A stretch of DNA of 64,000 nt, taken from NCBI GenBank assembly GCA_038210825.1, contig JBBQWG010000011.1, positions 29,877-93,876 on the forward strand, read 5' to 3'. This document shows positions 62,927 through 63,269 of the stretch, piece by piece. The stretch is from Verrucomicrobiales bacterium. GTDB taxonomy: Bacteria > Verrucomicrobiota > Verrucomicrobiia > Verrucomicrobiales > V1-33. A model generated the notes under the pieces. It was not told the DNA's origin. It did no database searches and was given only the letters and a program-made list of their open reading frames with translations. Both the position numbers and the translations under genes were made by a program. How positions within the stretch are numbered: position 1 is the stretch's first letter; each line of letters opens with the position of its first letter.

Positions 62927-63269
62927 CCCCCGGCCCCCGGCCCCCGGCCCCCGGCCCCCGGCCCCCTGTCCCCTGTCCCCTGTCCCCTGTCCCCTGTCCC
63001 CTGTCCCCTGTCCCCCGTCCCCCGTCCCCTGACCGCTGTGCCCTGCCCCCTGCCCCCTGCCCCCTGACCCCTGACCGCTGACCGCTGACCGCTGACGGTT
63101 GACCGCTGACCGCTGACCGCTGACCGCTGACCGCTGACCGCTGACCGCTGACCCCTGACCGCTGACCCCTGACCCCAGACCCCTGTCCCCTGTCCCCCGA
63201 CCGCCGCCCGCCGACCGCCGACCCCCGACCGCAGACCGCCGACCGCGGACCGCCGACCGCTGACCGCTG
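62927..63269. repeat. 49-unit tandem heptanucleotide array (consensus NCCSCYG) with no register-breaking indel
   Basis: Direct parsing gives, in order:
- (CCCCCGG)x5
- CCCCCTG, then (TCCCCTG)x6
- (TCCCCCG)x2
- TCCCCTG, ACCGCTG, TGCCCTG
- (CCCCCTG)x3
- ACCCCTG
- (ACCGCTG)x3
- ACGGTTG
- (ACCGCTG)x7
- ACCCCTG, ACCGCTG, ACCCCTG, ACCCCAG, ACCCCTG, TCCCCTG, TCCCCCG
- ACCGCCG, CCCGCCG, ACCGCCG, ACCCCCG, ACCGCAG, ACCGCCG, ACCGCGG, ACCGCCG
- (ACCGCTG)x2
Total 343 nt. Confidence 0.95.

Follow-up and report, generated by a model that had tools for sequence, protein, structure and literature searches.

How should a long run of seven-nucleotide units be understood when it fills most of the space between two divergent genes: as a regulatory element, as a coding or structural sequence, or as a microsatellite that has grown in place? 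This question is raised by positions 62927-63269 of the DNA stretch analysed here (hereafter the window), 64,000 nt of contig JBBQWG010000011.1 from a Verrucomicrobiales metagenome-assembled genome (MAG; GCA_038210825.1), where 49 tandem heptamers (hereafter the main array) lie between a gene for an M50B-like membrane peptidase and a gene for an alpha-glucan enzyme of family GH13. The main array is a compound heptanucleotide simple-sequence repeat (SSR), of the class represented by long SSRs (LSSRs) and short tandemly repeated repetitive (STRR) sequences, and not a new kind of element. With a probability of about 0.7, we consider it to be a slippage-generated and probably hypervariable, length-unstable microsatellite, carried as a near-neutral passenger and at most modulating GH13.

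Unit structure of the main array

Parsed from position 62927 on the plus strand, the main array consists of exactly 49 units of 7 nt (343 nt) with 0 indels, confirming the uninterrupted register proposed in an earlier reading of the same DNA (the original prediction), and Tandem Repeats Finder (TRF) likewise returned a period of 7 with 44.6 copies and 0% indels over positions 62963-63274. Sequence identity reached 0.896 at a lag of 7 nt, 0.872 at 14 nt and 0.845 at 21 nt, against ~0.30-0.37 at lags that are not multiples of 7, and this decay from 7 to 14 to 21 indicates that the period is a 7-nt DNA unit and not a 21-nt repeat at the codon level. Furthermore, the array exceeds the length expected by chance from the composition of the genome: 29 two-unit matches were counted in the window for 0.88 expected, and none of 100 dinucleotide shuffles reached 29.

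Seven unit types recur in the array, namely ACCGCTG (14 copies), TCCCCTG (8), CCCCCGG (5), CCCCCTG, ACCCCTG and ACCGCCG (4 each) and TCCCCCG (3), the 7 remaining units being singletons. The single consensus NCCSCYG, which had been proposed for all units, fits only 39 of the 49, the misfits being the five CCCCCGG units, TGCCCTG, ACGGTTG, ACCCCAG, ACCGCAG and ACCGCGG. By contrast, the proposed homogeneous blocks (five CCCCCGG, seven YCCCCTG, three CCCCCTG, three plus seven ACCGCTG, and a group of the ACCGCCG type) agree with our parse, which ends on a tail of the ACCGCSG type (Table 1), and the pattern fits the local slippage or unequal exchange to which they had been attributed. Adjacent units are very similar, with a summed Hamming distance of 35 vs 85 ± 6 in shuffled units, and the abundant types are linked by single substitutions (CCCCCGG-CCCCCTG-(T/A)CCCCTG-ACCGCTG-ACCGCCG). 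This block pattern, together with the chain of substitutions, bears the mark of point mutations that were then amplified locally. The C homopolymer that adjoins the 3' end of the array is itself a potential slippage tract.

The plus strand of the array contains 55% C and 23% G, in a window of 61.4% GC. The minus strand, which is the template strand of GH13, carries 26 runs of four or more G, and canonical G-quadruplex (G4) motifs are predicted on it at 62927-63029, 63041-63071 and 63166-63198, the nearest of them lying 128 nt from the GH13 ATG. With the 26 runs counted one per unit, 23 of the 49 units (e.g. ACCGCTG and ACCGCCG) lack a minus-strand G-run of three or more and cannot join a G4. 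Folding with ViennaRNA, whose model leaves G4s outside, predicted no Watson-Crick structure, neither for the sense RNA of 62871-63340 (z = -1.0 vs shuffled controls) nor for the minus-strand DNA (z = -0.4). In addition, no Rfam match was obtained in either of the two array-bearing spacers of the window, at gathering thresholds or at E <= 1.

Table 1. Positions of the arrays, their blocks and the neighbouring features in the window
Feature	Positions	Strand	Basis or remark
Main array, compound heptanucleotide tandem array, 49 units	62927..63269	+	C-rich strand is the GH13 sense strand
Block 1, CCCCCGG x5	62927..62961	+	Unit parse, G-run count; minus strand G5CC, G4-capable
Block 2, YCCCCYG x10 (CCCCCTG, TCCCCTG x7, TCCCCCG x2)	62962..63031	+	Minus strand (CAGGGGA)n
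Two odd units before block 3, ACCGCTG and TGCCCTG	63032-63045	+	Unit parse
Block 3, CCCCCTG x3	63046..63066	+	Unit parse
Block 4, 17 ACCSCTG-type units (ACCGCTG x11, ACCCCTG x4, two singletons)	63067..63185	+	
TCCCCTG and TCCCCCG units before block 5	63186-63199	+	Unit parse
Block 5, 10 ACCGCSG-type units (ACCGCCG x4, ACCGCTG x2, variants)	63200..63269	+	Unit parse
C9 homopolymer adjoining the 3' end of the main array	63270..63278	+	Sequence read
Stretch conserved with locus L256 (709-751), 43 nt into the GH13 ATG: CCCGGTTGCCAAGGCAT..CTGCG.CGGCTTGCG.GCATG	63286..63328	+	Alignment
GH13-family alpha-glucan enzyme gene, 5' part, runs off the window	63326..64000	+	Homologues with PF00128, PF14701
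Sigma-70-like promoter match of the M50B-like gene, TTGGCA-17-TATATT	62763..62791	-	Consensus match only
M50B-like (HExxH) membrane peptidase gene, 291 amino acids (aa)	61851..62726	-	Homologues of 289-294 aa, 99% coverage; PF13398 in several
Second array, (ACCGCTG)x7	53649..53697	-	TRF and scans; ends just upstream of the thrS ATG
thrS, threonyl-tRNA synthetase (ThrRS), 651 aa	51683..53638	-	PF00587, PF03129, PF07973 (class-II core, anticodon-binding, SAD)

Length variation upstream of GH13 and thrS

The main array fills 57% of the 599-nt divergent spacer (62727-63325) and leaves 56 nt up to the GH13 ATG (63326), in agreement with the original prediction, while 200 nt separate it from the M50B-like gene. 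The gene starts that had been assigned on both sides (62726 on the minus strand and 63326 on the plus strand) were corroborated by homology, through M50B-like homologues aligned at 99% coverage and through a GH13 orthologue fragment (P0138) aligned from Met1. Homologues of the GH13 protein are named as alpha-amylase family, maltosyl-transferring or debranching enzymes, and the named relatives closest to the flanking proteins are Verrucomicrobiales or Verrucomicrobiaceae MAGs.

The P0138 fragment, encoded at locus L256, is the only usable orthologue found (70% aa identity over residues 1-122), full-coverage matches in the search with the GH13 N-terminus reaching only ~50% identity. At this locus too, GH13 has a divergent neighbour, a different gene, from which 227 nt of spacer separate it, the spacer of the window measuring 256 nt once its array is subtracted. 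No tandem array was found in the L256 spacer, where the corresponding position is occupied by ~40 nt of irregular C-rich sequence (GTCCCCCGGGCCCTGCCTTGCCCCGCCG). Since the main array is absent from L256 and the last ~40 nt before the ATG are kept, the array represents a lineage-specific expansion upstream of a conserved stretch. Eight loci with M50B-like relatives (L121-L128, 70-79% identity) were also considered as orthologous spacers and proved uninformative: they retain the downstream amidase gene, have a different upstream neighbour and carry no heptamer arrays.

The conserved GH13-proximal stretch comprises TTGCCA (63291-63296), 17 nt, CGGCTT, 6 nt and the ATG, and may thus offer, judging from spacing and motifs, a promoter-like geometry for a leaderless mRNA, with a poor -10 element. 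We also observed that it is better conserved with L256 than the N-terminal coding sequence, and that it carries an inverted repeat, TGCC-AA-GGCA. In a scan with a sigma-70-like consensus, no plus-strand promoter was detected. The original prediction had described the array as a divergent promoter spacer, a description that our data do not support, as the only promoter match, that of the M50B-like gene, lies 135 nt outside the array and as the conserved GH13 stretch lies downstream of it. A weak -10-like TATATT, read by eye and below the scan threshold, is present at ~62859-62864, upstream of the array. GC skew, examined as a sign of a replication origin or terminus at the divergent spacer, was uninformative across the window.

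The second array of the window is sense-oriented relative to thrS, as the main array is to GH13, and lies 10 nt from thrS vs 206 nt from the upstream gene. Most of the 120 listed ThrRS homologues measure 651-653 aa, with 80-95% identity. Like most of these relatives, the window ThrRS has no Pfam match for the TGS domain and shows an HSCAH motif near residue 20, and it appears to be an N-terminally short form. The thrS relatives that we compared (87-95% ThrRS identity) have differing upstream genes and a conserved pyrimidine-rich leader, in which CTGACCR units stand in varying number directly before CTTTCCCCT-ATG: seven in the window, three in L131, two in L132 (complete 6.3-Mb genome OW818657.1), about eight degenerate ones (CTGACCC, CTGACTC and others) in L134, and none in L129 and L135. 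At the same site, L130 carries an AT-rich heptamer-like tract, and L133 a run of 10 N (scaffold gap, ~7040-7050) near the array position of its relatives, which fits an unresolved repeat. An invariant unit number, which the original prediction had named, together with a deletion that affects neither flanking gene, as an outcome that would speak against it, is therefore not what is seen at this orthologous thrS site, which is distinct from the main array.

The pyrimidine-rich leader itself extends over ~100 nt (..CCTCCCCGCTTTCCTTTTSC..CTTCCTGYCCTTCGTG..CTTCTGTTCC..) and was recognised at 53700-53790 (minus strand) in the window, at 330-400 in L131, at 9900-9970 in L132, and in L133 and L135. 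It contains no sequence resembling a Shine-Dalgarno (SD) motif, has no Rfam match and shows no consensus pairs in the leader alignment, and it could be a clade-specific promoter or an unstructured translational leader. Elsewhere in these relatives, the array at 7041-7064 of L132 (OW818657.1) has the 'after-stop' configuration described by Rehm 2015 (PMC4692102). In L129, two heptamer arrays with units of complementary type, (TGATAGT)x5.6 and (CCATCAA)x3.1, are arranged in opposite orientations as a pair at 8218-8298, between the adenylosuccinate-synthase and prenyltransferase genes, and could form a hairpin or a terminator.

A further case of differing length was found in Pseudoalteromonas, where L037 and L108 share a left flank at 95% identity and have 9 and 19 units, respectively. 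The right flank matching L037 (87%) is located on L062, another contig of the MAG of L108, which suggests that the array is the site of a rearrangement or of a mis-join.

Two other sequences of the window were inspected. The 13-mer CCCGCCACCTCCC occurs only twice, at 63276-63288 (plus strand) and 53775-53787 (minus strand), each copy lying in a spacer that holds an array, on the sense strand of that array, for 0.37 occurrences expected with up to one mismatch; being absent from the thrS relatives, it was rejected as a shared array-linked element and is probably due to chance. Short GC-rich tandem repeats with periods of 3, 6, 9 and 15 (CCG, CCGCCCCCG, CCGGCTGCT) are present at 46298-46366, at the end of the 45456-46379 open reading frame (ORF), and likely represent a coding, low-complexity, proline/alanine-rich tail.

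Occurrence and polarity of the units in other genomes

An exact scan with one genome per species located three tandem ACCGCTG units in at least 119 loci from ~15 phyla, and TCCCCTG x3 was found on at least 120 metagenome contigs. Among the ACCGCTG matches listed, and with phyla taken from record titles, about 31 loci belong to actinomycetes, 21 to cyanobacteria (Moorena, Oscillatoria, Okeania, Stenomitos and others), 12 to acidobacteria, 7 to Pseudoalteromonas and 9 to the Planctomycetota-Verrucomicrobiota-Chlamydiota (PVC) group (3 Verrucomicrobiota, 4 Planctomycetota, 1 Lentisphaeraceae and 1 Omnitrophota), with others in Chloroflexota, Nitrospirota, Myxococcota, Bacteroidota and further groups. 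The lack of a description of the unit, or of such an array, in PVC-type genomes, which had been pointed out in the original prediction, does not make the array a new kind, heptanucleotide SSRs being a described class, and the unit itself is widespread, these nine PVC loci included; a text search of the literature for the ACCGCTG tandem string, in any rotation, returned no match.

The sampled ACCGCTG arrays contain 3 to 56 units, and in two of them (L050 and L063), as in the main array, ACCGCTG units stand together with CCCCCTG or ACCCCTG units. Only one of the 229 sampled arrays (119 ACCGCTG arrays from genome loci and 110 TCCCCTG arrays from metagenome loci) is longer than the main array, which the extension rule used for sampling would itself split after unit 16 (16 + 33). 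Period 7 accounts for 293 of the 647 TRF rows in the fetched loci, 170 of them not of the target unit, compared with 17 and 23 rows for periods 6 and 8, respectively. In Moorena and related cyanobacteria (L035, L039, L048, L052, L061, L065, L074 and L114), 40-150 nt of left flank are similar across loci (e.g. AAGCATTCGTTTAATCTGAGTTA), a resemblance from which the heptamer arrays of these genomes may be thought to ride on a dispersed repeat element. Two loci labelled 'MAG: Klebsiella pneumoniae' (L070 and L106) have a GC content of 64-65% and are probably mis-binned, the GC content of this species being ~57%.

The placement of the 229 sampled arrays was analysed after symmetric masking of the arrays, with genes called by a self-trained codon-usage script and therefore approximate. 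Around 90% of the arrays are intergenic; those inside genes number 10 of 119 for ACCGCTG, all on the opposite strand, and 11 of 110 for TCCCCTG. Of the two array ends, the one nearer to an ORF is the 3' end of the C-rich strand in 59 of 91 ACCGCTG arrays (p=0.004) and 37 of 56 TCCCCTG arrays (p=0.02), with median ORF distances for the 3' vs 5' end of 34 vs 130 nt and 10.5 vs 69.5 nt, respectively. Within 50 nt of a start codon, sense arrays outnumber antisense arrays for ACCGCTG (20 vs 7, p=0.02) and are about as many for TCCCCTG (13 vs 14). Within 50 nt of a stop codon, sense and antisense counts are 24 vs 35 for ACCGCTG (not significant) and 12 vs 38 for TCCCCTG (p=0.0003); the latter result means that the coding strand is the G-rich one directly behind the stop, in line with Rehm et al. 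(PMC4692102). The orientation bias in co-directional gene pairs was not significant (26 vs 17, p=0.22).

Two sources of bias were considered. An earlier start-proximal count of 16 sense vs 1 antisense arrays was inflated, because antisense arrays are open in all frames and were absorbed by over-extended ORFs, and it became 20 vs 7 after symmetric masking. An origin of the polarity in missed degenerate units was rejected, the lag-7 residual of the flanks being symmetric (0.333 vs 0.327). The sampled arrays are thus not randomly placed, and both arrays of the window match the general pattern. The original prediction had listed random placement and orientation among the outcomes that would count against it, and in these arrays of other genomes the polarity of the 3' end points the other way.

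Explanations for the array and comparison with known repeats

In the explanation that we favour, the main array would have expanded in situ out of a short C-rich tract that lay upstream of GH13, through slipped-strand mispairing during replication and/or unequal exchange, while point mutations in single units followed by local amplification would have produced the homogeneous blocks. It would persist as a near-neutral, length-unstable passenger, and is presumably tolerated on account of its C-rich sense strand, which lacks structure and is closed to translation, and of its location upstream of the conserved GH13-proximal stretch. The array sets GH13 apart from the remainder of the divergent spacer by 343 bp and puts up to 26 tracts of four or more G on the template strand. 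Any effect would likely be a modulation of GH13 transcription (by spacing, by G4s of the template strand or, should the array be transcribed, by a long leader) and not an on/off switch. Several points weigh against this explanation. The length variation of the main array consists of presence or absence relative to one 70%-identical orthologue only, and the copy numbers within the homogeneous blocks are those of the assembly alone. The array sits between divergent genes, where the heptamer repeats surveyed by Rehm 2015 are under-represented (PMC4692102). Finally, the excess of sense ACCGCTG arrays close to starts hints at selection on orientation, and at some functional constraint over pure neutrality.

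Could the array, or its length, have been made or distorted by the metagenome assembly of low-complexity reads? An independent short-read assembly of a public run (Logan SRR19962009, contig L001, k=31) agrees with positions 61850-62955 at 100% and breaks off after the first 29 nt of the array, as is to be expected where the opening block repeats perfectly over 35 nt; it supports the left junction only, with the first four units. An exact look-up of the M50B-like protein returned solely this 1.1-kb Logan contig, which ends within the array, and an exact 28-mer from the right flank had no match in the Joint Genome Institute (JGI) metagenomes. Contig ends at 12 of 121 sampled arrays and the N-gap at the thrS array position of L133 would also fit an assembly origin. 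However, the longest perfectly periodic run of the main array is ~56 nt, presumably below the k-mers and reads usual in MAG assembly, which makes the assembled block copy numbers plausible, variant units act as unique anchors, and arrays of similar or greater length are present in genomes that are finished or come from isolates, such as the 56 units of Moorena producens 3L (L039), so that an assembly origin is highly improbable. We give practically no credence to a further possibility, a heptad-repeat (SGQRSAV) protein encoded on the minus strand. Three minus-strand ORFs do cross the array (62777-63922, 62880-63302 and 62917-63327, of 381, 140 and 136 aa), forming an annotation trap, and 10 of the 119 sampled ACCGCTG arrays (3-8 units) lie within long, well-scoring ORFs of the opposite strand. 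But the minus strand of the array is free of stop codons in all three frames by composition alone, making these ORFs compositional artefacts; the repeat identity is organised by 7 nt and not 21 nt; the 381-aa ORF runs antisense to GH13, a gene backed by homologues; and the codon-usage caller chose none of the three. On the plus strand, 18 stop codons are spread over the three frames, block 4 being the source of TGA in each of them, and the non-coding status given to the array in the original prediction is upheld.

The remaining alternatives, which are partly non-exclusive, ascribe a function to the array. Template-strand G4s and C-strand i-motifs might act as a roadblock, an insulator or an aid to strand opening. 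The 26 minus-strand G-runs with their three predicted motifs would suit such a role, as would the G-rich strand of TCCCCTG arrays right after stops (38 vs 12) and the heptamers GGGAATC and GGGGAYT, which form G4s in vitro and whose G-rich strand is non-coding upstream of ORFs (PMC4692102). We nevertheless hold it to be unlikely, given that 23 of the 49 main-array units and the whole thrS array have no G-run of three or more, that 128 nt separate the GH13 ATG from the closest G4-capable part, and that no regulatory role could be assigned by Rehm 2015 (PMC4692102). It is quite unlikely that the array is a tunable or contingency regulator, placed in a long GH13 5' untranslated region (UTR) or in the promoter region, whose unit number sets expression as in hmw1A. 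The sense orientation directly upstream of GH13, the copy-number differences among thrS relatives, the weak TATATT upstream of the array and the proven precedent of a heptanucleotide SSR in a 5' UTR, whose length inversely sets expression (PMC12721329, PMC8262952), all point in this direction. Against it, GH13 and thrS are metabolic or housekeeping genes, and Rehm 2015 judged phase variation unlikely on like grounds (PMC4692102); no stable hairpin of the hmw 5' UTR type is predicted (z = -1.0); and the array, which the L256 orthologue does without, is followed downstream by the conserved GH13-proximal stretch. An RNA leader platform is very improbable. Here, a protein that binds single-stranded RNA (S1, Csp or CsrA), or Rho loading on a C-rich, G-poor untranslated tract, would be drawn to the unstructured sense RNA with its stops in all frames, and would set translation or premature termination of the downstream gene. 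It would accord with the C-rich sense strand and its lack of predicted structure, with the thrS array ending 10 nt before the ATG in a pyrimidine-rich, SD-less leader, with the sense bias of start-proximal ACCGCTG arrays, and with the S1, Csp or CsrA binding that MacGregor proposed for TAACTGA repeats (PMC4679880). However, co-directional pairs show no overall sense bias, TCCCCTG arrays have no start-proximal bias, and the thrS leader is kept in relatives with 0-3 units, which makes the units dispensable.

A more general and decidedly doubtful idea is that CTGA-containing C-rich heptamer arrays (CTGACCG, CTGACCC, CTGTCCC and similar) form a pan-bacterial, orientation-dependent cis module. If this were true, such arrays would be generated repeatedly in sense before starts and in antisense after stops, where they might, for example, insulate translation in all frames, offer a platform to single-strand RNA binders or Rho, or work as a G4 3'-end element. 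The 49-unit array would then be an extreme, tunable GH13 attenuator, and the polarity of the arrays would reflect function and not mutational mechanics.

With the array taken as a slippage-generated microsatellite, as we prefer, the locus opens no new mechanism, and it makes the function of STRR-like repeats no more testable, its source being an uncultured MAG. It adds a PVC (Verrucomicrobiales-like) case, among the longest, to the poorly understood heptanucleotide microsatellites, whose same 7-nt units recur across ~15 phyla. In addition, two small series document growth in place from short seeds, namely the thrS leader (0, 2, 3 and 7 units) and the sequence upstream of GH13, with and without an array. 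For annotation, such arrays break short-read assemblies, and their open minus strand gives spurious ORFs of 136-381 aa, so that false genes and contig ends are to be expected.

Comparison with known systems places the array more precisely. It shares with arrays of short palindromic repeats that are clustered and regularly interspaced (CRISPR) the regular repetition of short units in non-coding DNA, but its units are contiguous, without spacers, and measure 7 nt vs ~28-37 nt, and the 64-kb window showed no cas genes, so that the original prediction was right to set CRISPR aside. It was also right to name STRRs and contingency-locus repeats as precedents. In the contingency loci of Haemophilus influenzae, the (ATCTTTC)n repeats of the hmw1A 5' UTR, the one heptamer SSR whose mechanism has been worked out, form one arm of a hairpin processed by RNase III (PMC12721329). 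As in hmw1A and hmw2A, a heptanucleotide SSR stands in sense upstream of a gene and, at the thrS site, varies in unit number, but the hmw repeats are transcribed, pair with a G-rich arm and control an adhesin, whereas the main array has no predicted hairpin and a metabolic gene downstream. More generally, its neighbours and those of the second array (GH13 enzyme, M50B-like peptidase, thrS) are not surface, virulence or restriction-modification genes of the kind that marks contingency loci in host-adapted organisms, and their relatives come from metagenome and MAG assemblies. The TAACTGA repeats of marine Beggiatoaceae, Cyanobacteria and Bacteroidetes reach 43 copies and stand a few nt upstream of the start codons of genes that include essential ones (MacGregor 2015, PMC4679880). 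They resemble the window arrays by a CTGA that places a stop in every frame, by their patchy distribution across phyla and by their length, and the thrS array is similarly in sense a few nt upstream of an essential-gene start; they differ in sequence (CTGATAA vs CTGACCG in the same rotation) and composition (AT-rich vs GC-rich), and the main array lies 56 nt from its start codon.

The cyanobacterial units STRR1-3 are reportedly CCCCAGT, TTGGTCA and CAACAGT, as Mazel is said to have described in 1990. The window units depart from them by at least 1-2 bases (TGACCGC vs TGACCAA; CCCCTGT vs CCCCAGT), and the nearest named relatives of the flanking proteins are Verrucomicrobiales or Verrucomicrobiaceae and not filamentous cyanobacteria, whose genomes hold many dispersed STRR arrays, with two arrays in the 64 kb of the window; by likeness, the ACCGCTG unit also occurs in the cyanobacteria Moorena, Oscillatoria, Okeania and Stenomitos. 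A bridge to the CCCCAGT-type units is offered by GGGGAYT of Nostoc, which is their complement. This heptamer and GGGAATC of Xanthomonas are the G-rich repeats of Rehm 2015 (PMC4692102), which are intergenic, count up to 26 units with a mode of 4, vary between close relatives, and lie nearer to an ORF on one fixed side whatever its orientation, the G-rich strand being non-coding within ~50 bp upstream of ORFs or coding within 50 bp after stops; each unit has a tract of at least three G, in at least four consecutive tracts, and no function was found for them. The main array agrees with them in the G-tract heptamers of part of its length, in its G-rich strand that is non-coding upstream of an ORF (at 56 nt for the array end and 128 nt for the nearest G4 motif), in the one-sided ORF proximity and, as far as the thrS site and the absence from L256 go, in the variation of length and sequence between relatives. 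It differs by its minus-strand units (CAGGGGA, CCGGGGG and CAGGGGG), by the 23 units that lack a G-run of three or more, and by its 49 units in a divergent spacer, compared with a published maximum of 26 and rarity between divergent genes.

The closest fit is with the LSSRs of 5-11-nt units, which, as summarised in two later papers, are typical of large, GC-rich genomes of non-pathogens, have heptamers as their commonest form and are proposed to arise from polymerase slippage over a 7-nt footprint (Mrazek 2007, via PMC4692102 and PMC4679880). The Verrucomicrobiales-like lineage is not among the examples of PMC4692102 and PMC4679880, and the main array stands at the length extreme of the class and is compound, with at least five unit types in blocks. 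It otherwise shares with these LSSRs the head-to-tail 7-nt units without spacers, the intergenic position, the GC-rich (61%) genome of free-living type and the proposed slippage origin, and period 7 likewise dominates the tandem repeats of the sampled array-bearing genomes.

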